Shown here: piece by piece, positions 8,969 through 26,340 of the stretch
How positions within the stretch are numbered: position 1 is the stretch's first letter
Layout: each line of letters opens with the position of its first letter
NCBI GenBank assembly: GCA_043816085.1
Contig: JBDRII010000028.1
Coordinates: 1-27,031, forward strand
Source: Patescibacteria group bacterium
GTDB taxonomy: Bacteria > Patescibacteriota > Patescibacteriia > UBA9570 > JAHJKD01
Direction of reading: 5' to 3'
DNA length: 27,031 nucleotides
Made by a program: the position numbers and the translations under genes
The notes under the pieces: generated by a model
The model's input: only the letters and a program-made list of their open reading frames with translations
Database searches by the model: none
What the model was told of the DNA's origin: nothing

Positions 8969-9763
8969 ATGATTAAAGATAATATTGTTAGATTAATTTT
9001 ATTGGGAGTAGTCATTGGGCTGCTCATTTTTTTGCATTATGTGGGTGTGCTTTCACCTGTAGAAAATCTTTTTGCTAGGGGATTTAAATATATCCAAAGC
9101 CCAATATATAGTTTAAGTACTAAAATCTTTAAAACTGAAAATAAAAGCACCATTGCCGAGCTGGAAGAGGAAAATAAAAATCTAACAAATCAAATACAAG
9201 AATTAATTACGGAAAACAGCAAATTAAATCAAAGAAAAGATGATGAACAAAAATATGAAAAACAACTAGAATTTCTAGAAAAAAAGGATTTCATTTCAAT
9301 TGGTGCAAAAATTATTGGAAAATCAAGCGAGGGCCATTCTGGTATTTATTTAATAAACCAGGGGAAAAATCAAAACATTAAAGAAGGGTATCCAGTAATC
9401 ACAGAAAATGGAATATTAGTAGGAAAAGTAACTACTGTAGACAGCGATACCTCAAAAATAATGCTAGTTACTAATAACCTTAGTAAAATTGGTGCCCAAG
9501 TACAAAATCAAGATTCATCCCAAGGTGTAATTTCTGGTCAACATGGATTAACTATAAAAATAGATTTAATTGCCAAAGATGAAAAATTAGAAAAATACGA
9601 TATAGTTATTACTTCCGGCCTAGAAGAAAACATTCCCCATGGATTAATCATCGGACAAATTGAAGAAATTGAAAATGAAGAAAGTGATTTATTCCAATCA
9701 GCAATTATCTCACCCCTTATTGATTACAAACAACAAACAATAGTTTCTGTAATTATCCCATAA
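8969..9763 (+). CDS. mreC: Rod shape-determining protein MreC
   Basis: N-terminal TM helix, coiled coil, INQGKNQNIKEG, GILVGKV and VITSGLEENIPHGLIIG; lies between mreB and mreD. Confidence 0.93.
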   Translation: MIKDNIVRLILLGVVIGLLIFLHYVGVLSPVENLFARGFKYIQSPIYSLSTKIFKTENKSTIAELEEENKNLTNQIQELITENSKLNQRKDDEQKYEKQLEFLEKKDFISIGAKIIGKSSEGHSGIYLINQGKNQNIKEGYPVITENGILVGKVTTVDSDTSKIMLVTNNLSKIGAQVQNQDSSQGVISGQHGLTIKIDLIAKDEKLEKYDIVITSGLEENIPHGLIIGQIEEIENEESDLFQSAIISPLIDYKQQTIVSVIIP

Positions 9764-10287
9764 TGACATTTAAAAACATTATCATATTTTTAATATTAAT
9801 CTTTTTTCTTCTAATTCAAATTAGTTTTCTTGCTAATTCTGATTTTCTCCATAAAAATCTACAACTTATTTTCATTTTTTTACTAACCATTCTTTTATTA
9901 GCTAAATTTTCTCTTTATTATTGCTTAAAGTGGGCTATTTTTGCTGGGTTAATATTAGACATTTATTCTCAGTTTGTTTTTGGCTCATATATTATCAGCT
10001 TTGTTCTGACACTATTTATTGTTTATTTAATTTTATACAAATTTTTAACTAATAAATCATATTACACATTAATTGCCCTTGTCTTGATAGGAACCGTCTC
10101 TTATAATTTAATATTATTTATATTAGCCTTATTTTTTTATATTATTAATGTTACTGCTTTTAAAATTGATTTTAATCTAGCCTTACTTACTGGAATTTTT
10201 TGGCAATGCTTAATTAATATGTTTATTGTAACAATAGTGCATCTCTTTAGAAAACGAATTCTTAAAGCATTTATTATACAAACATGA
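9763..10287 (+). CDS. mreD: Rod shape-determining protein MreD
   Basis: Polytopic hydrophobic protein of 174 aa with a GLILDIYS motif, between mreC and PBP2. Confidence 0.85.
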   Translation: MTFKNIIIFLILIFFLLIQISFLANSDFLHKNLQLIFIFLLTILLLAKFSLYYCLKWAIFAGLILDIYSQFVFGSYIISFVLTLFIVYLILYKFLTNKSYYTLIALVLIGTVSYNLILFILALFFYIINVTAFKIDFNLALLTGIFWQCLINMFIVTIVHLFRKRILKAFIIQT

Positions 10288-12286: not shown

Positions 12287-14047
12287 ATGAAAAAAATAAT
12301 CGCTATTCTTTTTATTCTGGGTGTTTTTTGTGCTATTCAAAGCGTTCAAGCATCTGCTACCTTAAACGGACAAGTATATGAAATAAATGGCGATTCAATT
12401 GAAAATATTAATGCTGAAGCTTTTGCTTGTTCTCAAACTAATGATGCTGATAGTGATCAAACTATAGTCTCAACTGTTGATGGATCTTTTAGTCTAACAG
12501 TCGATGGCGACAGTGAATATCAAATATATTTTAGCGACGACCTTAGCAGTGTAAATTCTAAAATTATCTATTTAGAAGATGGAGCCAATATTAATTTGAA
12601 CTTTTTTGCTGAACTTGATGAAACAATGGCCGTAGTAAGGGGTAAAATTGTTGATAATAACGGAGCTCCGCTCAGTAATGAATCTATCACTCTATATTCC
12701 AATGAAGGCGAAGATTCCGCAATAACTTATACTATTAATAGCGATAGCACTGGGAAATTTAATTTTTCCGTACCTCCTGGAAACTATGATCTAGAATCAA
12801 CCCCCCAGGGCGCCTATTGCGGGCCAGGCGTAGGCCAAGAAAATTGTCTGGGCTTTATCGACCAAAATGTAGAATTAGACCCTAATGAAATTTTAGACTT
12901 AGGTACATTAGATTTTACTCCGGCTAATAATCATTTAAACCTATACTTTTTTGCTAAAAATGGAAATGATTCCCCAGAATTATTAACCCTAACTAGAGGA
13001 CAAGTCCAAGCCCATTCCCAATCCGGCCTTTATTCTGGAATCAATAATATTACTGAATATGAAAACAACATTTCTGACATACCATTAACTTCAAATGAAA
13101 ATTGGACAATTAATGCCTCTGGAATCGCTGGAACCAGCTTTTATCATGGGACTATTACCATTTCTGGTGATACCACTTTTACTGATATTGTTTTACAAAA
13201 AAAATACGATCTGGAATCAGCCAGTATTAATAATATTGATGAAACCTTTTTAGCTAATACAGATAAAGAAATTATCTTAAGCGACGGCACAATTATTAAT
13301 ATCCCCGCCTATGCTATTGATAGTGAGGGGGAGGTTAATGTACTAATTGAACCAGCCTTTGATATTTACGGAGCCAAATTGCCAATTAATGGTTTTGTTT
13401 ATAATTTTACTGCTTATAACCACTTAGGTGCCCAAGTAGATGAATTTGACAGGGAAATTCCCATTACAATGTCCTATGACGCAGACGACCTGGAAGACCT
13501 AGGTATAGATGAAAGTAATATTGTTCCTTCATTTTATTCTGAAAGTTATGATCGATGGCTTAATGTCCCTATTTACACTTTAAACACTAATGATAATACA
13601 ATTTCTTTCAGCGTTAATCATTTTTCCCAATATGCCGTAGTAGCTGATATGAATTTAGATATTACTAAAAAATACACCAGGGGTAATAAAAAAGCCCAAC
13701 TTAGGCATGCTCCCAAAAAAGTACGAAAAGTCAAAACAAGAAAAATTGAAATATTATATAATAATTACGTTAAAATTAAAACTAGCTGGAAACGCATTAA
13801 AAATGTAAAAAAATATCAAATCCAATTATTTAAAAAAGACAAAAAAAGAGCGAAAAAATTAAATTCACTTTATCAGGTTAGTAAAAAGAAAATAAAAAAA
13901 TTAAAACGACCTTATAAAATCATTGAAAGAAATTTTAGACCCAATACCCAATATGGCTTAAGAGTAAGAGCCATGAGAAGAGCTGGTAATGAAAATTTTT
14001 ATGGTGCTTGGAGTAAAAAATCATGGCTAACACCTAACAAGCCTTGA
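12287..14047 (+). CDS. Secreted/surface protein: acidic beta-sandwich domains (carboxypeptidase-regulatory-like) plus a very basic C-terminal FN3-like domain
   Basis: Signal peptide ...QSVQA; VRGKIVDNNGAPL...SDSTGKFNFSVPPGNYDL; NHFSQYAVV; K/R-rich tail with FN3-type W..V..Y and RPNTQYGLRVRA...GAWS. Confidence 0.6.
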   Translation: MKKIIAILFILGVFCAIQSVQASATLNGQVYEINGDSIENINAEAFACSQTNDADSDQTIVSTVDGSFSLTVDGDSEYQIYFSDDLSSVNSKIIYLEDGANINLNFFAELDETMAVVRGKIVDNNGAPLSNESITLYSNEGEDSAITYTINSDSTGKFNFSVPPGNYDLESTPQGAYCGPGVGQENCLGFIDQNVELDPNEILDLGTLDFTPANNHLNLYFFAKNGNDSPELLTLTRGQVQAHSQSGLYSGINNITEYENNISDIPLTSNENWTINASGIAGTSFYHGTITISGDTTFTDIVLQKKYDLESASINNIDETFLANTDKEIILSDGTIINIPAYAIDSEGEVNVLIEPAFDIYGAKLPINGFVYNFTAYNHLGAQVDEFDREIPITMSYDADDLEDLGIDESNIVPSFYSESYDRWLNVPIYTLNTNDNTISFSVNHFSQYAVVADMNLDITKKYTRGNKKAQLRHAPKKVRKVKTRKIEILYNNYVKIKTSWKRIKNVKKYQIQLFKKDKKRAKKLNSLYQVSKKKIKKLKRPYKIIERNFRPNTQYGLRVRAMRRAGNENFYGAWSKKSWLTPNKP

Positions 14048-14080: not shown

Positions 14081-14551
14081 ATGAACAATCAAAAACAAAC
14101 CTACATAACTGAAGAAGGTTTAAAAAAACTAGAAGAAGAGCTAGAGTATTTAAAAAATACTAAACGCAAAAAAATTGCCGAAAGAATTAGAGACGCCAAA
14201 GAATTAGGTGATCTTTCAGAGAATGCAGAATATGCTGAAGCCAAAGAAGAGCAAGGTTTTGTAGAAAGCCGAGTTTTAGAATTACAATCTATTACTAGAA
14301 ATGTTAACTTAATTAAAAAAAGCAAAAAAGCTAATCAAATTGATGTTGGTTCTACTATTGAAGTAGAAAACGCTGAAGGTAATAAAATGACTTACACCAT
14401 AGTAGGTTCCAACGAAGCCAATCCACCCAAAGGCCTTATTTCTAATGAATCTCCTATAGGAAAAGCCTTTTTGGGTAAAAAAGTTGGTGAAGAAGCCGAA
14501 GTAGAAGCACCTTCTGGCAAAATTACTTTTAAAGTTTTAAAAATTAGTTAA
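14081..14551 (+). CDS. greA: Transcription elongation factor GreA
   Basis: GDLSENAEY, AKEEQ and ISNESPIGKAFLGKKVGE. Confidence 0.98.
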   Translation: MNNQKQTYITEEGLKKLEEELEYLKNTKRKKIAERIRDAKELGDLSENAEYAEAKEEQGFVESRVLELQSITRNVNLIKKSKKANQIDVGSTIEVENAEGNKMTYTIVGSNEANPPKGLISNESPIGKAFLGKKVGEEAEVEAPSGKITFKVLKIS

Positions 14552-14563
14552 TAAACTTTAAAT

Positions 14564-14591
14564 TTGACAAAATTAATATTCATGATAATAT
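14564..14591 (+). promoter_or_regulatory. sigma70 promoter for the leader-lysWXYZJK-lysS operon
   Basis: TTGACA (14564-14569), 16-bp spacer, extended -10 TG-A-TAATAT (TG 14583-14584; hexamer 14586-14591). Confidence 0.65.
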
Positions 14592-14610: not shown

Positions 14611-14667
14611 ATGAAAATTCAAGCAATCCAACTTAAGAAGAACAAATTTAACTCTTTACTCGGATGA
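14611..14667 (+). CDS. Putative lysine leader peptide MKIQAIQLKKNKFNSLLG (not in the ORF track)
   Basis: 18 codons with Lys at 2, 9, 10 and 12; its 3' half and stop codon overlap the attenuator hairpins. An in-frame ATG at 14590 overlaps the predicted -10 and is probably not transcribed. Confidence 0.7.
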   Translation: MKIQAIQLKKNKFNSLLG

Positions 14668-14723
14668 GTAGCTAAATTTGTTTTATCTTAAAAAAATAGC
14701 CTCTCAACTGAGAGGTGTTTTTT
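14641..14723 (+). promoter_or_regulatory. Transcription attenuator with pause (1:2), antiterminator (2:3) and terminator (3:4) structures
   Basis: 1:2 is AACAAATTTA (14641-50)/TAAATTTGTT (14673-82) plus TACTC/GAGTA. 2:3 is TGAG (14665-68)/CTCA (14703-06), GCTA (14671-74)/TAGC (14697-700) and TTTTA/TAAAA. 3:4 is CCTCTC-AACT-GAGAGG followed by T6. Pairing was done by eye. Confidence 0.72.
14699..14723 (+). terminator. Rho-independent terminator upstream of lysW (attenuator 3:4)
   Basis: GCCTCTC AACT GAGAGGT G TTTTTT. Confidence 0.8.
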
Positions 14724-14754
14724 ATTATATATCTAATTATTTTAAGTAAAAATT

Positions 14755-14928
14755 ATGTCTAATCAAAATTTATGTCCAGAATGCGAGGGTCAAGTCGTAT
14801 TACCATCAGATGCAGAAGTAGGGGAAATCCTAACCTGTTCTGACTGCTCCTCTGAATTAGAGGTCCGCAGTTTAGAACCCTTAATCATTGAATTAGCCCC
14901 AGAAGAAGAGGAAGACTGGGGTGAATAA
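14755..14928 (+). CDS. lysW: Amino-group carrier protein LysW/ArgW, 57 aa (not in the ORF track)
   Basis: Manual translation gives [57 protein letters not shown]: two CxxC zinc pairs, very acidic, and the diagnostic C-terminal EDWGE. Confidence 0.97.
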
Positions 14929-14932
14929 AATT

Positions 14933-15775
14933 ATGAAATTAGGAATCATTTATTCACGGCTTCGAAAAGAAGAAAAATTATTATTTCTAGAAGCCAAAAA
15001 ACAAGGCATTGATCTTATTAAAATTCAAGATAATGATCTAATATTAGATTTGAATAACAACCAACCTAATATGGATGTCATACTAGAAAGAAGTGCCTAT
15101 CATAGTCGAATAATTCCCACTTTATCTATCTTAGAAAATCAAGGCATAAAAACTGTTAATAGTTTAGAATCAACTAATATATGTGATAATAAATTATTAA
15201 CCAGTGTCAGTTTAGCAAAAAATATCATTCCAACTCCTCAAATAAAAATAGCTTTTACCGAAGAAAAAGCTTTAGAGGCAGCCGAAGAATTAGGTTATCC
15301 AGTAGTAATTAAACCAGTAAGCGGTTCCTGGGGAAGATTGCTTGCTAAAATAAATGACCGCGAAGCAGCTGAGGCAATTTTTGAACATAAAAAAGTTTTA
15401 GGCTCATGTGATCATTCTATTTTTTATATTCAAGAATTCATAAATAAAAATCAAAGAGATATTAGATCGTTTGTGGTGGGCAATCAGACCATTGCGGCAA
15501 TTTACAGAGAGTCAGAGCATTGGATAACAAATACAGCCCGGGGCGGCCTAACCTCCAGGTGCCGAGTTACTGATGAAATTAATAATTTATCTCTTCAGGC
15601 AGCCAGAGCCGTTAAAGGAGAAATAGTAGCTATTGATTTATTGGAAACAAAACATGGAACACTGCTAGTAAATGAGATTAACTCAACCATGGAATTTAAA
15701 AATAGCATTGATGTTACTGGAGTAAATATACCAGGTGAAATAATTAATTATTTAAAAAAAACATATGGCAATTAA
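14933..15775 (+). CDS. lysX: Alpha-aminoadipate(/glutamate)--LysW ligase, ATP-grasp RimK family
   Basis: [24 protein letters not shown]...[26 protein letters not shown] 14933 ([11 protein letters not shown]) is preferred to the track's GTG 14921, which lies inside lysW. Confidence 0.95.
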
Positions 15776-16742
15776 TGTTTCAATTGTGGGTGGATCAGGA
15801 TATGCTGGCGGAGAGCTGGTAAGATTATTAATATCTCACCCTGAAGTTAATATCAACCAAATAACATCTGAATCAAATAAAGGAAAATTTATTTCTTTAC
15901 TCCATCCTAATTTGAGAAAAATTTGTAATTTAAAATTCTCTAGTATTAATGATCTTAAAAAATGTGATGTATTATTCCTGACTCTTCCTCATGGAATGAC
16001 AAAAAACCGATTAACAGAGTTTTCTAATTTAGCCGATATTATTATTGATCTAAGCCAAGATTTTAGATTAAGTGATAAATTTGTCTATGGAATAGCTGAA
16101 TTGCATCGAGGCGAGCTAAAAACAGCTAATTTTATAGCTTGTGCCGGCTGTAATGCCACTGCTACTATATTGGGCTTATATCCTTTTTACAAAGAAAAAC
16201 TTATTCGTGAAAACCAAACTACAGTAGAGGCCAAAATTAGTTCTTCAGCATCTGGAAATAAAGCAAATTTAGGCACACACCACCCAGAAAGAAGTGGAGT
16301 AGTGCGTTCCTATATGCCAACAGGACACAGACATATTCAAGAAATAAAACAAGAACTAAATACTAATAACGTACATTTTTCTGCTACTTCCATAGAAATG
16401 GTCAGGGGAATATTAATAACAGCCCAACTATTTCCCCAAAACAAATTATCAGATAAAGATATTTGGAAATTATATAGGAAATATTACAATGACGAACCAT
16501 TCATCAGAATAATCAAAGAAAAAAAAGGAGTTTATAGGTATCCTGAACCAAAACTTCTTCGAGGAACTAATTACTGTGATATTGGTTTTGAAGTAGACGA
16601 AGAATCTGGCCGAATAGTAATTATGTCAGCAATTGATAATTTAGTTAAAGGAGCAGCTGGTCAAGCTGTTCAAGCCTTTAATATTAGATTTAATTTTCCT
16701 GAAATCACTGGTTTGGAATTTAATGGATTACACCCATGCTAA
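15765..16742 (+). CDS. lysY: [LysW]-aminoadipyl-phosphate reductase (ArgC family)
   Basis: [11 protein letters not shown] Rossmann motif, catalytic [33 protein letters not shown] and [14 protein letters not shown]. Confidence 0.93.
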
Positions 16743-17530
16743 TAATTAAAATCGGCGGCGGCCAAACAATTAATATTAATTATATACTTGAAGATTTATC
16801 TAGTCTTCAAGAAAAATTTATTATTATTCATGGAGCAAATTATTTAATGGATGAATTTTGTACCAAACTAAATAAACCTCAAAAAACCCTAGAATCAATT
16901 TCTGGATTTACTTCCAGATACACTGACCCGGAAACTATGGACATTTTTATAATGGTATATGCTGGCCTCGCTAATAAAAGAATCGTGGAAAAATGTCATC
17001 AATACAATATTAATGCTGTTGGACTTTCTGGATTAGACGGAAAACTAGCCACTGGTCAAAGAAAAAAAGCTATTAAAGCAAAAATTAATAAAAAAATCAA
17101 ACTTATTAAAGATGATTTATCTGGAAAAACTGAAACTATTAATATAGAATTACTAAAATTATTATTAAATAATAATTACACTCCTGTAATTTGTCCTCCA
17201 ATTTTAAGTGAGGATAACCAAGCTATAAATACTGACAATGATACTTTAACCTCGATTATTTGCAGAGATATGGATATAAAAACAATTATTAATTTATTTG
17301 AAGCCCCAGGATTATTAAAAAACCCTAATGATCCAAATTCTTTAATTTTAACAATCAATAAAAATAAAATAAATAATTATATGAAATATGGAGAGGGTCG
17401 AATGAAAAAAAAATTATTAGGAGCAGAACAAGCTATTAAAAATAATGTAACTAAAATTATATTAAGTGATGGACGCATTAAAAATCCTGTTTCAAGTGCC
17501 TTAAATGGCCAAGGAACAATTATTCAATAA
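16736..17530 (+). CDS. lysZ: [LysW]-aminoadipate kinase (ArgB family)
   Basis: IIKIGG, IIHGA, SRYTD, GLSGLDG, basic GQRKK loop, NTDND and GRMKKK. Confidence 0.93.
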   Translation: MLIIKIGGGQTININYILEDLSSLQEKFIIIHGANYLMDEFCTKLNKPQKTLESISGFTSRYTDPETMDIFIMVYAGLANKRIVEKCHQYNINAVGLSGLDGKLATGQRKKAIKAKINKKIKLIKDDLSGKTETINIELLKLLLNNNYTPVICPPILSEDNQAINTDNDTLTSIICRDMDIKTIINLFEAPGLLKNPNDPNSLILTINKNKINNYMKYGEGRMKKKLLGAEQAIKNNVTKIILSDGRIKNPVSSALNGQGTIIQ

Positions 17531-17535
17531 AAAAA

Positions 17536-18681
17536 ATGAATATTCAACAAATTGAAGATCAAAATTTAATTCCAATTTATCAAAAAAGGGATATTGTCCT
17601 GGTAAAAGGCAATGGTTGTTATTTATTTGATGAAAATAATAATGAATATTTAGATCTAGCCTCTAATTATGGGGCAAATATTTTAGGTTATAATAATATT
17701 AATTTTAATAATGCACTAAAATCACAAATAGATAGGCTAACAAATTGCCACAGCAGTTTTTATAATGATACTCGTGCGGCCTTACTGTCTAAACTAAATA
17801 ATTTATTTCCAAATTTTAAATCCTTTATATGCAATACTGGAACTGAATCAGTAGAAGCAGCTCTTAAATTTGCTAAAATTATTTCTAACAAAGATGAAAT
17901 TATTAGTGCCAAACGTTCATATCATGGAAGAACCCTGGGCGCTCTATCAGCAACTGGTATTCCAAAATATCAAAAACCATTCCAACCTTTGATTCCCAAT
18001 TTTAAACAAATAAATTTTAATGATATTAATGATCTAATAAAAAATATTAGCCATAATACAGCGGCAATTTTACTTGAGCCAATTCAGGGAGAAAGTGGCG
18101 TAAATATTCCTAATATTAATTATTTAAAACAAGTAAAAAATCTTTGTGTCAAAAATAATATATTATTAATTCTAGATGAAATTCAAACAGGGTTTAGAAC
18201 AGGTAAATATTTGGCCGCTGATCATTTTAATGTTGAGCCTGATATTTTTTGTTTATCTAAAGGTTTAGGAAACGGCTTTCCTGTCGCCCTAACCCTTGTT
18301 CACAATAATGTTTTTAATAATATTGCCAGGGGAAGTCACGGAACTACTTTTGGCAGTAATCCCATGGCCTGTGCCGCCTCTTTAAAAACTCTTGAAGAAA
18401 TTGCGAATAATCAATTATTGCAAAACTCAAAAAATATGGGAGAATATTTTTTAATTAAACTTAATAATATTAATTCTCCAATAGTTAGAGAGGTTAGGGG
18501 GCTGGGATTAATGATAGCCATAGAACTAAAACAAAAAGCTGGAAAATATGTTAAAGCCTTACAAGAAGAGGGGATACTAGTAATGTCTAATAATAATATT
18601 ATAAGATTATTACCTCCTTTGATAATTACTAAAGAAGAAATTGATTTAGCTTTAAAAAAATTTAATAAAATTTTATGTTAG
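17536..18681 (+). CDS. lysJ: [LysW]-aminoadipate semialdehyde transaminase (class III PLP, ArgD family)
   Basis: SYHGRTLGALS, LEPIQGESG, DEIQTG, SKGLGNG (PLP lysine), HGTTFGSNP and RGLGLM. Confidence 0.92.
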   Translation: MNIQQIEDQNLIPIYQKRDIVLVKGNGCYLFDENNNEYLDLASNYGANILGYNNINFNNALKSQIDRLTNCHSSFYNDTRAALLSKLNNLFPNFKSFICNTGTESVEAALKFAKIISNKDEIISAKRSYHGRTLGALSATGIPKYQKPFQPLIPNFKQINFNDINDLIKNISHNTAAILLEPIQGESGVNIPNINYLKQVKNLCVKNNILLILDEIQTGFRTGKYLAADHFNVEPDIFCLSKGLGNGFPVALTLVHNNVFNNIARGSHGTTFGSNPMACAASLKTLEEIANNQLLQNSKNMGEYFLIKLNNINSPIVREVRGLGLMIAIELKQKAGKYVKALQEEGILVMSNNNIIRLLPPLIITKEEIDLALKKFNKILC

Positions 18682-19688
18682 ATAATATTAAATTACTACA
18701 AAAATTAGTAGAAATAGAAAGCCTATCTGGTCAAGAAAAAAAAGCAGCTAATTTTTTAATTAGGCACACTAAAAAATTAAATTTTGACAAAACTTATAAA
18801 GATGACGCTGGAAATTTTGTAGCTGAAAGGGGAGGCGGAAATAATATAATTTTATTAGTTGGGCATGTTGATACTGTTTCCGGAAAAATACCAGTCCGCA
18901 TAAAAAATAATAATCTGTATGGAAGGGGAAGCGTAGATGCTAAGGGATGTTTAGCTACTTTTATCAGTGCTGTAAATAATTTAGTTAATCTAGAAAATAA
19001 CAAATTTATAATAATAGGCGCAGTAGAAGAAGAATGTGAAACATCTAAAGGCGCAAAATTTATTTTAGATAAATATAATCCAAACGCAATATTTATTGGT
19101 GAACCAAGTGGTTGGTCTAATATTACTATTGGTTACAAAGGCAGTCTTAGGCTTGAATATGCAGATGAGTGCCAAAACTTGCATTACGCTAATCCTGATT
19201 CAAATTTAATAAATAAAGCAATTAATTTTATTAATAATTTAAAAAATAATCTTAGTGAAGACGAAATATTAGAAATTAGAAATTTTAATACAACCAACAA
19301 TGGACTAACTCAAAAAGTTAACATAAAAATTAATATCCGAACATCTCCTAATTTTAATATAAATAAAATTGACAATTTATTGAAAAATAAACAAATTACT
19401 ATCAAAGAAAACATTCCTGGAATAATAGCAAATAAAAATAATTTTTTAGTAAAATCCATGTTAAAAAGTATTAGAAAATCCAGTGGTAAACCAAAATTTT
19501 TACGAAAAACCGGTACTTCAGACTTTAATTATTTAGCGAAGAATTGGCCAAATATTCCTATTTTGGCTTATGGTCCAGGTAATTCTAAACTTGATCATGC
19601 CCCGAATGAACATTTAGATCTAAATGAGTATAAAAAAGCCATAAAAGTTTTGACTTTTGCATTAAATAGTGTTAAAATGGGCGCATGA
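18675..19688 (+). CDS. lysK: [LysW]-lysine/ornithine hydrolase (M20 family)
   Basis: GHVDTV, GRGSVDAKG, VEEE, IGEP, GTSD and YGPG...DHAPNEH metal-binding motifs; last gene of the LysW cassette. Confidence 0.92.
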   Translation: MLDNIKLLQKLVEIESLSGQEKKAANFLIRHTKKLNFDKTYKDDAGNFVAERGGGNNIILLVGHVDTVSGKIPVRIKNNNLYGRGSVDAKGCLATFISAVNNLVNLENNKFIIIGAVEEECETSKGAKFILDKYNPNAIFIGEPSGWSNITIGYKGSLRLEYADECQNLHYANPDSNLINKAINFINNLKNNLSEDEILEIRNFNTTNNGLTQKVNIKINIRTSPNFNINKIDNLLKNKQITIKENIPGIIANKNNFLVKSMLKSIRKSSGKPKFLRKTGTSDFNYLAKNWPNIPILAYGPGNSKLDHAPNEHLDLNEYKKAIKVLTFALNSVKMGA

Positions 19689-21772
19689 TAAAATCTGAAC
19701 AAGAAATCCGGAGGGAAAAACTAACAACAATTAAAGATCAGGGGTCAAACCCTTATCCAAGTACTAGTAAAAGAGATGCTTTAATTTTAGATTTTTTAGA
19801 AAATTTTAATAAGCTAAAAAGAAAGAAAAAAGAAGTAACTATTTCTGGGCGAATAATGACATTTAGAGCACATGGCAAATTAGCCTTTGCCAACCTTTTA
19901 GATCGTACTGGAAAATTACAAATTATTTTTTCTCAAAATGAATTAGGCCCGGATAAATATAAATTTCTAAAAAATATTGATATCGGTGACATTATCCAGG
20001 TTACTGGAACTGCTTTTATTACAGAAAAAAAAGAAGAGTCCCTACTTATTACTGACTATAAATTATTATCCAAAGCCCTAGAACCACTTCCAGACAAATG
20101 GCATGGCATTAAAGATGAAGAAACAAGATATAGAAAAAGATATCTAGATATTTTATTAAACCCAGAGCTCCAAGATATGTTTAGAAAAAAGGCTATTTTT
20201 TGGAATAGTATGAGACAATTTTTACTAGACAACAAATTTATTGAAGTAGAAACCCCAGTATTAGAGACTACTCCTGGTGGCGCAGATGCTGAGCCTTTTA
20301 TTACACACCATAACGCCCTAGACATAGACCTATATCTTAGAATTTCTATGGGGGAGCTTTGGCAAAAAAAATTAATGGTAGCCGGATATGAACGGACTTT
20401 TGAAATTGGTCGCCAATTCAGAAATGAAGGAATTGATCCAGAACATTTACAAGATTATACTCAAATGGAATTTTACATGGCCTACACAAATTATGAAGAA
20501 GGTATGAAACTGGTTGAAGAGATGTACAAGTATGTTATAGCTAAAACTTTTGGAAAATTAAAATTTAAAATAAAAGATTTTGATTTAGATTTTAGTCAAA
20601 AATGGGAAAAAATTGATTATGTTTCTGCCATTGAAAAAAAATATCAAATCAACATATTAGACGCTGATGAAAAAAAATTACAAAAAAAATGTCAGGAATT
20701 AAAACTAGATGTTTCAGATAAAGCAGGCAAAGGCAGATTAATGGATACTTTATGGAAACAAGTTAGAAAAACTATTGCTGGGCCAGCATTTTTAGTAAAC
20801 CAGCCTGTTGAAGTTTCACCCCTGGCAAAAAGACAAGAAAAAAATCCAAAATTAGTAGAACGATTTCAAGTAATAACAGCTGGATCAGAAAACGGAAACG
20901 GTTATTCCGAACTTAATGATCCAATTGACCAAGAAAACCGATTTAAAGAACAAGCCGCCCTTCGAGAAGCCGGGGACTCTGAAGCTCAAATGCATGACGA
21001 AGAATTTGTAGAAGCCCTTAAGCATGGTATGCCACCAACTTGCGGATTCGGCGTATCTGAACGTTTATTTTCATTTTTGATGGATAAGCCAATTCGTGAA
21101 TGTGTTCTCTTTCCCTTACTTCGTCCAAAAAATAATCACGAAATCACGAAAAAACCGAATGTCGCGAAAAAAGAAGAAAAAGAAGAAAAAATTGATTTTA
21201 ATATTTCCCGTGAAAAATCTTTAGAACTTTTAAAAGCCCACATGAAAGACGAGGCTAATCTAAATCATAGTTTAGAAAGTGAAGCTGTGATGAGAGGGGT
21301 AGCAGAACACTTGGGTGAAGATGTAAAATATTGGGGAGCATTAGGGTTGCTACACGACGTAGATTGGGAATACGGAGAAGATGAACATTGTGTAAAATGT
21401 TCTGAGATCTTAAAGGACGCTGGATATGATGATTTATTTGTAGAAACAGTTATATCTCATGGATGGGGAGTAGAAGATTGTGGTAAAGGAACATTAAAAG
21501 ATTTTAAACGAGAAACTAAAGTTCAGCATGCTCTAGCAGCTAGTGAAACTATTACAGGTTTAATTTTTGCGTCGGCCTTAGTTCGCCCAGATAAAAAACT
21601 AGAATCTGTAAAAGTAAAGTCAATTAAGAAAAAAATAAAAGACAAATCTTTTGCCGCCAAAGTTAACAGAAACGTAATAAAAGAATGCGAACAAGTTGGA
21701 CTAGAATTAGATGAATTTTTAGCCATAGCATTAAAATCCATGCAGGGCATAGCAAAAGAAATAGGATTATAA
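19685..21772 (+). CDS. lysS: Lysine--tRNA ligase (class II) fused to a C-terminal HD-domain hydrolase
   Basis: OB-fold GRIMTFRAHGK, RYRKRYLD, IGRQFRNEG, GMPPTCGFG..ER and LFPLLRP ending about aa 481. After a linker, aa ~507-695 carry H528, HD 557-558, ETITGLI, ALVRP and KKIKDKSFAAKV. Confidence 0.96.
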   Translation: MIKSEQEIRREKLTTIKDQGSNPYPSTSKRDALILDFLENFNKLKRKKKEVTISGRIMTFRAHGKLAFANLLDRTGKLQIIFSQNELGPDKYKFLKNIDIGDIIQVTGTAFITEKKEESLLITDYKLLSKALEPLPDKWHGIKDEETRYRKRYLDILLNPELQDMFRKKAIFWNSMRQFLLDNKFIEVETPVLETTPGGADAEPFITHHNALDIDLYLRISMGELWQKKLMVAGYERTFEIGRQFRNEGIDPEHLQDYTQMEFYMAYTNYEEGMKLVEEMYKYVIAKTFGKLKFKIKDFDLDFSQKWEKIDYVSAIEKKYQINILDADEKKLQKKCQELKLDVSDKAGKGRLMDTLWKQVRKTIAGPAFLVNQPVEVSPLAKRQEKNPKLVERFQVITAGSENGNGYSELNDPIDQENRFKEQAALREAGDSEAQMHDEEFVEALKHGMPPTCGFGVSERLFSFLMDKPIRECVLFPLLRPKNNHEITKKPNVAKKEEKEEKIDFNISREKSLELLKAHMKDEANLNHSLESEAVMRGVAEHLGEDVKYWGALGLLHDVDWEYGEDEHCVKCSEILKDAGYDDLFVETVISHGWGVEDCGKGTLKDFKRETKVQHALAASETITGLIFASALVRPDKKLESVKVKSIKKKIKDKSFAAKVNRNVIKECEQVGLELDEFLAIALKSMQGIAKEIGL

Positions 21773-25143: not shown

Positions 25144-26340
25144 ATGAAAAAGTTATCTAAATATCTGAAAGTAGGCCGGAACCGACGTTTAAAGTATTTA
25201 AAAGGCCAGGACTATAAAAAATACAAAGAATCTGACGGTGAAGAATACGCTTTTCGAAAAAAAGAACAAAAACCGCAAACACTTCGTGAATTTTTATTAA
25301 ATTGGATCTTAAAAAAAGATGGCTGGGCTTGGTTAATTATCGTACTTATCGTTGTGGGTGGGGGGCTAACCTTTCTTTTTGCTACTCCATTTTTCAAAAT
25401 AAATGAAATAAATTTAAATGGTAATAACCATATATCATCAGAGGAATTAAATAATATAATAAATAAATATAAAAATTCAAAATCTTTATTAATTTTTCCT
25501 AGAAATAATTATATATTTTTCAATGAAAAAAAATTACAAAATATTATTACAGAAAATATTCAAAATAAATTTGCCCTAGAAAGCATCTCTATAACCAAAA
25601 AACTACCTAACAAAATAAATATTAACATTTCCGAGCGTATTCCAGGCCTTATTTGGCAATCAGGAAGTCAAAAATATCTTTTAGACATAACTGGCTTTCC
25701 TACAGAAGAATTTTCTAAACAAGAAAACCAAAAAGAAGAAGAATATCCCAAAATTACAGATCAAAATGAAAAACCAGTAGAAATAGGCCAACAAGTAATT
25801 TCAGAGGATTTAATATCATTTGTATTAGATTTAGACCAAACATTCCCCCAAAAAACCAATTTAGAAATTAAAGAATATTTTATTCCTGAAATTCAATGCC
25901 AAGAAAAAGTATATCGAGCCGAAAAAATCTTAGCTGAAGAAATAGATGAAACCGAAGACGTTGAAACTAAAAATAAAAAGAAGGAAATATTAGAACAATA
26001 TAATGCAGGGGAGTTAGATGTAGAAGAAAGTCTAGATTTATTAGATGAAATTAAACGAGAAGAGAAAAAAAACAAAGAGTCTAAGTCTCCTGACGAGGAC
26101 AGCTCTGATGAATTTATTGAATGGCGAACCTATTACGAACCAGTAGAATGTGATCTAGTTAAAATAAATACTGAAATAAACATCTTAACAGCTAATAACT
26201 TTGCCATCTATCTAGACTCAAGTCACGACTTAGACAAACAATTAGAAAATTTAAATTCCATATTACTAGAAATAGTTGACAACAAAGAAAATTTAAATTA
26301 TATTGATCTACGTTTCCAAGACAAAGTTTATTATAAATAA
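25144..26340 (+). CDS. ftsQ: Cell division protein FtsQ/DivIB-like with an acidic insertion
   Basis: Basic cytoplasmic N-terminus, single TM, POTRA-like FKINEINLNGNNHIS...ITKKLPNKININISERIP, and C-terminal YIDLRFQDKVYYK. Confidence 0.82.
   Translation: MKKLSKYLKVGRNRRLKYLKGQDYKKYKESDGEEYAFRKKEQKPQTLREFLLNWILKKDGWAWLIIVLIVVGGGLTFLFATPFFKINEINLNGNNHISSEELNNIINKYKNSKSLLIFPRNNYIFFNEKKLQNIITENIQNKFALESISITKKLPNKININISERIPGLIWQSGSQKYLLDITGFPTEEFSKQENQKEEEYPKITDQNEKPVEIGQQVISEDLISFVLDLDQTFPQKTNLEIKEYFIPEIQCQEKVYRAEKILAEEIDETEDVETKNKKKEILEQYNAGELDVEESLDLLDEIKREEKKNKESKSPDEDSSDEFIEWRTYYEPVECDLVKINTEINILTANNFAIYLDSSHDLDKQLENLNSILLEIVDNKENLNYIDLRFQDKVYYK

Follow-up and report, generated by a model that had tools for sequence, protein, structure and literature searches.

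The locus considered here raises the question of which substrate is joined by the ligase LysX to its carrier protein LysW, alpha-aminoadipate or glutamate, since only the second half of the LysW-dependent pathway was seen around it. The window, i.e. the whole stretch of 27,031 nucleotides that was analysed, is the entire contig C28 of a Patescibacteria group bacterium assembly (937 kb in 131 contigs, 33% G+C, completeness 89.6%, contamination 0.7%). It carries six intact genes, lysW-X-Y-Z-J-K, whose starts and stops overlap or nearly touch and which are located between greA (14081-14551) on the 5' side and lysS-HD, all six and lysS on the forward strand. lysW (14755..14928) encodes a 57 aa amino-group carrier, a zinc ribbon with two CxxC which ends with EEDWGE and scores 53.9 bits against TIGR01206 (cut-off 53.2). 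It is followed by lysX (14933..15775), coding for an ATP-grasp [LysW]-aminoadipate ligase; lysY (15765..16742), an ArgC family reductase (TIGR01850, 352 bits); lysZ (16736..17530), a [LysW]-aminoadipate kinase of the AA_kinase family (NF010659, 292 bits, cut-off 223); lysJ (17536..18681), a class III aminotransferase; and lysK (18675..19688), a hydrolase of the M20 [LysW]-lysine type, with 306.6 bits against TIGR01902 (cut-off 163.1) and 346.7 bits against NF003367, the latter below its cut-off of 363. lysS (19685..21772) codes for a lysyl-tRNA synthetase of class II carrying an HD domain at its C-terminus, and its start shares the sequence ATGA with the lysK stop. Using tblastn, no paralogues of LysW, X, Y, Z, J or K were found elsewhere in the assembly. 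A conserved greA/lysS context was considered and rejected, as the flanks differ in G010, L013, L015 and L016.

Every sizeable open reading frame of the window was searched against Pfam or NCBIfam. Apart from the cassette and lysS-HD, the families matched were GT4, RarA-like ATPase, holB, frr, rseP, proS, mreB, mreC, mrdA, greA, serS, alr, ddl and nifU; three reading frames (9763-10287, 12287-14047 and 25144-26340) matched no NCBIfam family, and 12287-14047 has CarboxypepD_reg as its only Pfam match. The preliminary description of this DNA had noted that the window lacks both the front half of the pathway and argF/G/H, and the searches bear out both statements: neither homocitrate synthase, homoaconitase, homoisocitrate dehydrogenase or LysN, nor argF, argG or argH was detected among the sizeable reading frames.

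LysX is 280 aa long when read from the ATG at 14933, or 284 aa from the upstream GTG at 14921. It scores 338.9 bits against TIGR02144 (cut-off 275.6) and is composed of a LysX pre-ATP-grasp domain (PF22626) and a RimK ATP-grasp domain (PF08443). The motifs quoted for it earlier are all present at their positions, namely IYR at 15500-15508, WITNTARGG at 15521-15547 and MEFKNS at 15689-15706; the LysW-recognising motif GSWGR is located at 15323-15337, and the adjacent LysW ends with EDWGE. For placement of the enzyme we used bit scores against PDB entries together with a five-residue signature. Its best solved relative is Thermus LysX (3vpd, 268 bits), which is strictly aminoadipate-specific (PMC12998189), while the bifunctional LysX of Thermococcus (5k2m) gives 215 bits and ArgX of Sulfurisphaera tokodaii (3vpb) 155 bits.

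The five-residue LysX/ArgX signature defined by Shi et al. 2025 reads F-I-T-NS in aminoadipate-using LysX (F182-I192-T203-N258S259 of the Thermus enzyme), I-Y-V-GF in glutamate-using ArgX of Sulfolobales and Y-I-T-NA in bifunctional LysX/ArgX (PMC12998189); in haloarchaeal ArgX, which uses glutamate only, the last pair is AL (PMC10433800). As a swap of the signature left haloarchaeal ArgX unconverted, it is not the sole determinant of specificity (PMC10433800). In the ungapped alignment to 3vpd the window LysX has F180 (15470-15472), I190 (15500-15502), T201 (15533-15535) and N257-S258 (15701-15706, all forward strand), i.e. the LysX type of a signature established on a handful of enzymes. It has neither I-Y-V-GF nor the AL pair of ArgX, and it differs from the bifunctional Y-I-T-NA by F at the first and S at the last position. 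The same F-I-T-NS was found in 120 of the 120 closest database homologues and in the copy of the relative G010. The rule given in the preliminary description, EFKN-x in LysX-type ligases against EFKGF in ArgX, and the bifunctionality stated there for Thermococcus agree with the published signature (PMC12998189). The closest LysX proteins with a named source, at 60-68% identity, are labelled as Patescibacteria group bacterium.

Some Patescibacteria possess several LysX paralogues, which read F-I-T-NS, I-V-L-QF and F-M-T-GL in G145, and F-I-T-NS, V-M-A-AL and I-V-L-PF in G170; in such genomes one F-I-T-NS copy is kept and divergent copies are added. Because the I-V-L-PF copy shares its contig with argG, and also with a second lysW-like gene, the arginine-linked ligase of Patescibacteria looks ArgX-like, and the F-I-T-NS copy would be something else.

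The end product of the cassette may also be read from the region ahead of lysW. On the forward strand there is a promoter-like site at 14564..14591 (TTGACA, 16 nt, TG-TAATAT; a consensus match only), a leader reading frame, MKIQAIQLKKNKFNSLLG, at 14611..14667 with a KKNK cluster (Lys codons 9, 10 and 12), and at 14699..14726, between the leader and lysW, an intrinsic-terminator-like hairpin with a T run (GCCTCTC/GAGAGGT). This is the layout of a leader attenuator, a short reading frame with cognate codons, an intrinsic terminator and then the regulated gene. The Lys codons (14635-14646) lie within the 5' arm of the first, long hairpin, and the fold of the leader region is far more stable than that of shuffled sequences (z = -4.7). 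A Lys-rich leader followed by a terminator and lysW was noticed also in three other Patescibacteria, L013 (...VKENKKSF...), L016 (...VSKKKSKPVR) and G010 (...YKAKAKKTHS), with unrelated flanks, and as a background such a leader reading frame occurs in only 7 of 97 comparable intergenic regions of the window's genome. In a simulation masking the ribosome footprint the terminator gave way to an antiterminator in L013 and L016, with no clear switch in the window or in G010. A riboswitch or T-box was rejected, as Rfam returned only a sub-threshold Phe_leader match (24 bits versus 55), reflecting nothing but the leader-plus-terminator shape. Since lysS lies downstream, the leader could serve lysS here; in G010 the gene after lysK is that of lumazine synthase and not lysS. 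The proposed scheme is that a scarcity of charged tRNA-Lys would stall the ribosome on the leader and let transcription read through the terminator.

Similar arrangements, each consisting of a leader and then a terminator, precede other genes of this genome: ALLLLGLLLG before leuC, LRRRNR before argG, IHHHN before hisG, a Cys-rich leader with a Cys run before cysK, and a leader with seven Thr before a reading frame with a ThrRS-like N-terminus. Ser-run and Met-run leaders occur on contigs C99 and C101, where the downstream annotation was uninformative. Because the Leu, Arg, His, Cys and Thr leaders match their operons, leader codons track the end product here, which would put the cassette on a lysine circuit and the arg operon on an arginine circuit of its own. 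The findings suggest that this organism makes wide use of ribosome-mediated attenuation, and we propose tentatively, rating it somewhat below an even chance, that the Lys, Arg, Leu, His, Cys and thrS operons are governed by cognate leader-peptide attenuators. Where it is ambiguous what an operon makes, matching leaders of this kind offer an inexpensive and widely applicable means of reading its end product.

The preliminary description had left three options for the origin of the substrate: a front half encoded elsewhere, synthesis of ornithine from glutamate, or salvage of aminoadipate. As a check of the first it had proposed an HMM search of the whole genome, which we carried out with the Pfam HMGL-like, aconitase and Iso_dh models against the whole assembly. 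Each gave one match, and all three fall in a single leuC-leuD-leuA-leuB-ilvE operon on contig C90, preceded by the Leu leader, which speaks against this option. The operon was rejected as an aminoadipate front half by its equivalog scores (LeuC 665 bits, cut-off 560; LeuD 209 bits, cut-off 116; LeuA 730 bits against TIGR00970, cut-off 697; LeuB 428 bits, cut-off 353), by the Leu leader and by the alignment of LeuA, which gives 596 bits to LeuA of Mycobacterium tuberculosis and 47 bits to a solved homocitrate synthase. The residues which we take to form the 2-oxoisovalerate site (in M. tuberculosis numbering Arg80/Asp81, Leu143, His167, Tyr169, Asn250/Pro252 and His285/His287) are conserved in the C90 LeuA. 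A complete Thermus-type aminoadipate gene set was thus not found in this assembly of 89.6% completeness. The diaminopimelate route was rejected as well: the assembly contains no DHDPS, no LysA/ODC-type decarboxylase and no member of the AA_kinase family besides lysZ, hence neither aspartokinase nor ArgB. No IlvD and no citrate synthase were detected in the assembly, and tblastn with a citrate-synthase-like gene of the relative G490 gave no match in it; as leuC is the sole gene of the aconitase family and leuB the sole one of the Iso_dh family, no route to 2-oxoglutarate is seen. Two general class I aminotransferases are encoded in the assembly.

Genes for the last steps of arginine synthesis, in contrast, are encoded outside the window. 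On contig C58 the genes argG-argH-carA-carB-pyrB-pyrI-pyrC are accompanied by a partial argF (the first 142 residues, at the contig end), with the RRRNR leader ahead. The cassette, with its KKNK leader, shows neither a genomic nor a regulatory link to these arginine genes. A second ornithine route was sought with the cassette proteins and rejected, as tblastn yielded no paralogues. Among relatives of the same class, ten that bear argG, several of them 98-100% complete, contain no ArgC/LysY homologue; therefore a de novo synthesis of ornithine does not follow from the presence of argFGH, and an argG module without such synthesis is usual in this class. The F-I-T-NS signature, the Lys leader as opposed to the Arg leader, and these ten relatives disfavour the option that the cassette makes ornithine from glutamate.

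LysX is rare in the phylum, being present in 2 of 101 relatives and in 6 of 401 genomes of a phylum sample. G010, of the same order and 97% complete, has lysW-X-Y-Z-J-K with no HMGL-like gene and no argG; its lysX contains one in-frame TAA, so this cassette may be decaying. G490 (0.6 Mb) also has the cassette without an HMGL-like gene, and its divergent citrate-synthase-like gene is located between lysW and lysX. Complete clusters are present in G145 (contig C63) and G170 (contig C57), where LysX has next to it a short homocitrate-synthase-like gene as well as genes for homoaconitase subunits and for a dehydrogenase. Large-genome relatives, one of them labelled Candidatus Methylomirabilis, have a compact lysWXYZJK around which 10 kb contain nothing of the front half, and one of them has an HCS-like gene on a different contig; a transfer of this unit alone would deliver only the back half, as is seen in the window.

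The preliminary description had also suggested that lysine or ornithine could feed the peptidoglycan stem, as alr, ddl, mrdA and ftsQ are close by, and had proposed inspection of the MurE specificity motif. In MurE (contig C100, 424 aa) EDPY takes the place of the DNPR motif of diaminopimelate-adding enzymes, in which Asn and Arg bind the distal carboxylate of diaminopimelate. This motif, together with the failure to find diaminopimelate genes, fits a stem peptide of lysine or ornithine type. The suggestion has only indirect support, from MurE, while the closeness of alr, ddl and mrdA is no evidence for it, because the flanks of the cassette differ in every other genome.

Taken together, the reading that we prefer, and to which we give about an even chance of being right, is that of an aminoadipate-specific LysX in a cassette which makes lysine from aminoadipate that is probably imported. 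LysX would attach alpha-aminoadipate to LysW (57 residues) at the glutamate that ends the carrier, after which LysZ would phosphorylate, LysY reduce and LysJ transaminate the bound intermediate, and LysK would release lysine. Aminoadipate, or 2-oxoadipate converted by a general aminotransferase, would be supplied by a host or community, and the cassette would be a salvage-type last leg to lysine, needed for protein and probably for a wall without diaminopimelate. Of the three options named above, aminoadipate salvage is thus the best one remaining, and it was reached by elimination only, as the assembled genome has no recognisable means to make aminoadipate. Several points weigh against the preferred reading. 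A front-half cluster of 4-5 kb could have escaped assembly at 89.6% completeness and 131 contigs; the assembly contains argF, argG, argH and carAB but nothing else that would supply them with ornithine; a transporter for aminoadipate was not found; and taking up aminoadipate rather than lysine has no obvious advantage. With still more reserve, and leaning slightly against it, we extend this reading to the suggestion that some Patescibacteria keep the back half as a lysine-attenuated salvage module turning external aminoadipate or 2-oxoadipate into lysine.

Four other explanations were weighed, and in our ranking the strongest of them, though unlikely, is that the front half resides in the unassembled or unbinned tenth or so of the genome, or consists of unrecognised enzymes, and that lysine is made de novo from 2-oxoglutarate. 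The incompleteness and the number of contigs leave room for it, the complete clusters of G145 and G170 have a homocitrate-synthase-like gene adjoining LysX, and the citrate-synthase-like gene of G490 hints at non-canonical condensing enzymes. Against it, G010 and G490 carry the cassette without an HMGL-like gene, no route to 2-oxoglutarate is seen, and the cassette is self-contained in the donors and in five CPR contexts. Somewhat less probable still is a LysX that takes glutamate, alone or in addition, and provides ornithine for argF-argG-argH and/or an ornithine-type peptidoglycan, after the pattern of Sulfolobus, Thermococcus or haloarchaea. Such a role would suit the presence of partial argF, argG, argH and carAB in an assembly with no ArgB/ArgC/ArgD/ArgE paralogue, as well as a MurE that is not of the diaminopimelate type; moreover, LysZ and LysY of Thermus can use intermediates of the LysW-Glu kind, and wild-type LysX shows traces of activity with glutamate. 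However, the F-I-T-NS of the window is identical to that of the strict Thermus LysX, all characterised glutamate users have another last pair, be it GF, AL or NA, and the CPR paralogue that is linked to argG reads I-V-L-PF instead; the Lys leader of the cassette against the separate Arg leader of the arg operon, and the ten argG-bearing relatives without an ArgC/LysY homologue, point in the same direction.

That the C90 leuA-leuCD-leuB products moonlight as front-half enzymes, with a general aminotransferase making aminoadipate, we regard as improbable. They are the only front-half homologues of the genome and evolutionary cousins of the missing enzymes, the two class I aminotransferases exist, and the lack of IlvD means that the normal supply of 2-oxoisovalerate is missing too. 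Nevertheless, LeuA, LeuC, LeuD and LeuB all exceed their Leu equivalog cut-offs, LeuA is far closer to its M. tuberculosis counterpart than to homocitrate synthase, the operon has a leader with a Leu run and not Lys, no source of 2-oxoglutarate is seen, and the cassette occurs in G010 and G490 although genes of this kind are absent there. Placed last, and likewise improbable, is a recently transferred passenger currently without a role, which the rarity of LysX, the flanks differing between genomes and the internal stop in lysX of G010 would allow; yet all six window genes are intact with overlapping or abutting starts and stops, and several CPR lineages have retained the cassette with its Lys leader although their LysX proteins are only 61-69% identical to that of the window.

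The ultra-small CPR bacteria are believed to rely on partners for the majority of their building blocks, and a maintained, lysine-regulated back half without a front half points to a specific exchanged metabolite, alpha-aminoadipate or 2-oxoadipate. The cassette also provides a naturally occurring example of a pathway that is divided at the carrier-protein step. Full-text literature searches returned nothing relevant on the aminoadipate pathway in Patescibacteria/CPR, and cross-feeding on one of its intermediates is, as far as we found, undiscussed for this group. If ornithine synthesis from glutamate were true instead, the published five-residue signature would not hold for one lineage of bacteria, which would matter for the annotation of these genes.

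Among known systems, that of Thermus thermophilus (LysX 3vpd/1uc8) has the same six proteins, the EDWGE end of the carrier, GSWGR and F-I-T-NS, and its lysine cluster is reportedly under leader-peptide control. Thermus, however, encodes the front half including LysN, and for arginine it has its own pathway of the acetyl type, neither of which is seen in the window's assembly, and unlike there, the window has a compact lysWXYZJK followed by lysS. Thermococcus kodakarensis (5k2m) likewise possesses a single LysW/LysX set and no separate ArgB/ArgC/ArgD set, but its signature is Y-I-T-NA, while the window LysX reads F-I-T-NS and the regulation of its cassette appears specific for Lys and distinct from that of the arg operon. 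With ArgX of Sulfolobales (3vpb) and the haloarchaeal ArgW/ArgX (Natrinema gari) the window cassette has the carrier-protein chemistry in common, and the haloarchaeal case demonstrates that such a cassette can exist without aminoadipate-forming genes (PMC10433800); these enzymes differ from the window LysX in using glutamate, in lying beside arg genes and in reading I-Y-V-GF or AL. The clusters of G145 (C63) and G170 (C57) belong to the same phylum and contain, as the window does, one F-I-T-NS LysX each, but in contrast to the window they have front-half genes beside LysX and extra LysX paralogues.

The lysyl-tRNA synthetase gene (window 19685-21772), whose product carries a C-terminal HD domain, begins in an ATGA overlap with the stop codon of lysK at the 3' end of the lysWXYZJK cassette, and a promoter-like site (window 19650-19678) is placed just within the 3' end of lysK. 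Across the whole assembly, lysZ was the sole member of the AA_kinase family to be found. UMP kinase (pyrH), which is normally essential, is therefore absent from the assembled sequence, and this absence underlines that roughly 10% of the genome lies outside the assembly.

Amino-acid synthesis in this CPR genome is richer than usual for the group. Contigs C51 and C86 together hold hisG, hisD, hisC and a HisN-like phosphatase gene, as well as a split transketolase. The argH ORF (L010:12613-13809, contig C58) encodes 398 aa and stops just past GVPFREAYKIIGEKY; compared with the 455-position model, some 55-65 residues are lacking at its end. The carA gene follows 118 nt downstream, and this gap is too short to encode the missing residues. 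The murE gene (L017:925-2199, minus strand, contig C100) encodes only 424 aa and, since its product aligns to the 472-position model only from position 68 onward, MurE lacks most of the N-terminal domain; EDPY occupies the position of DNPR, the motif of diaminopimelate-adding enzymes.

The same assembly also contains a set of leader-peptide attenuators, all of which combine a run of cognate codons with a terminator downstream: Leu x7 ahead of leuC (C90:921-989), RRRNR ahead of argG (C58:11183-11260), HHH upstream of hisG (C51, minus strand), a Cys-rich peptide upstream of cysK (C88, minus strand) and Thr x7 ahead of a ThrRS-like ORF (C3:24186-24263). Several leaders start with MNN or MK, and a Ser-run (C99:3504) and a Met-run (C101) are further candidates.

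In the only other cassette-bearing genome within the same order (G010), lysW, Y, Z, J and K are all intact, while lysX (L029:9166-10017, contig C5, minus strand) contains one in-frame TAA (…IQAM*EFGYPVV…), which marks either the onset of decay or an error in the consensus sequence. The cassette of G490 (GCA_022572625.1) is identical in make-up, apart from a divergent citrate-synthase-family gene of 397 aa located between lysW and lysX (L013:5064-6257), which scored only 57 bits against an NCBIfam citrate synthase model. No HMGL-like gene was found in genome G490, and the citrate-synthase-family gene could supply the front half of the pathway with a non-canonical condensing enzyme.

Three LysX paralogues apiece are encoded by two other Patescibacteria, G145 (L066, contig C63) and G170 (L067 and L073, contigs C57 and C123), with differing substrate signatures: F-I-T-NS, the aminoadipate-specific type, I-V-L-QF/PF, F-M-T-GL and V-M-A-AL. 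Because one LysX set has its own lysW-like gene adjoining argG, this arrangement points to distinct carrier systems for lysine and for arginine within one small genome.
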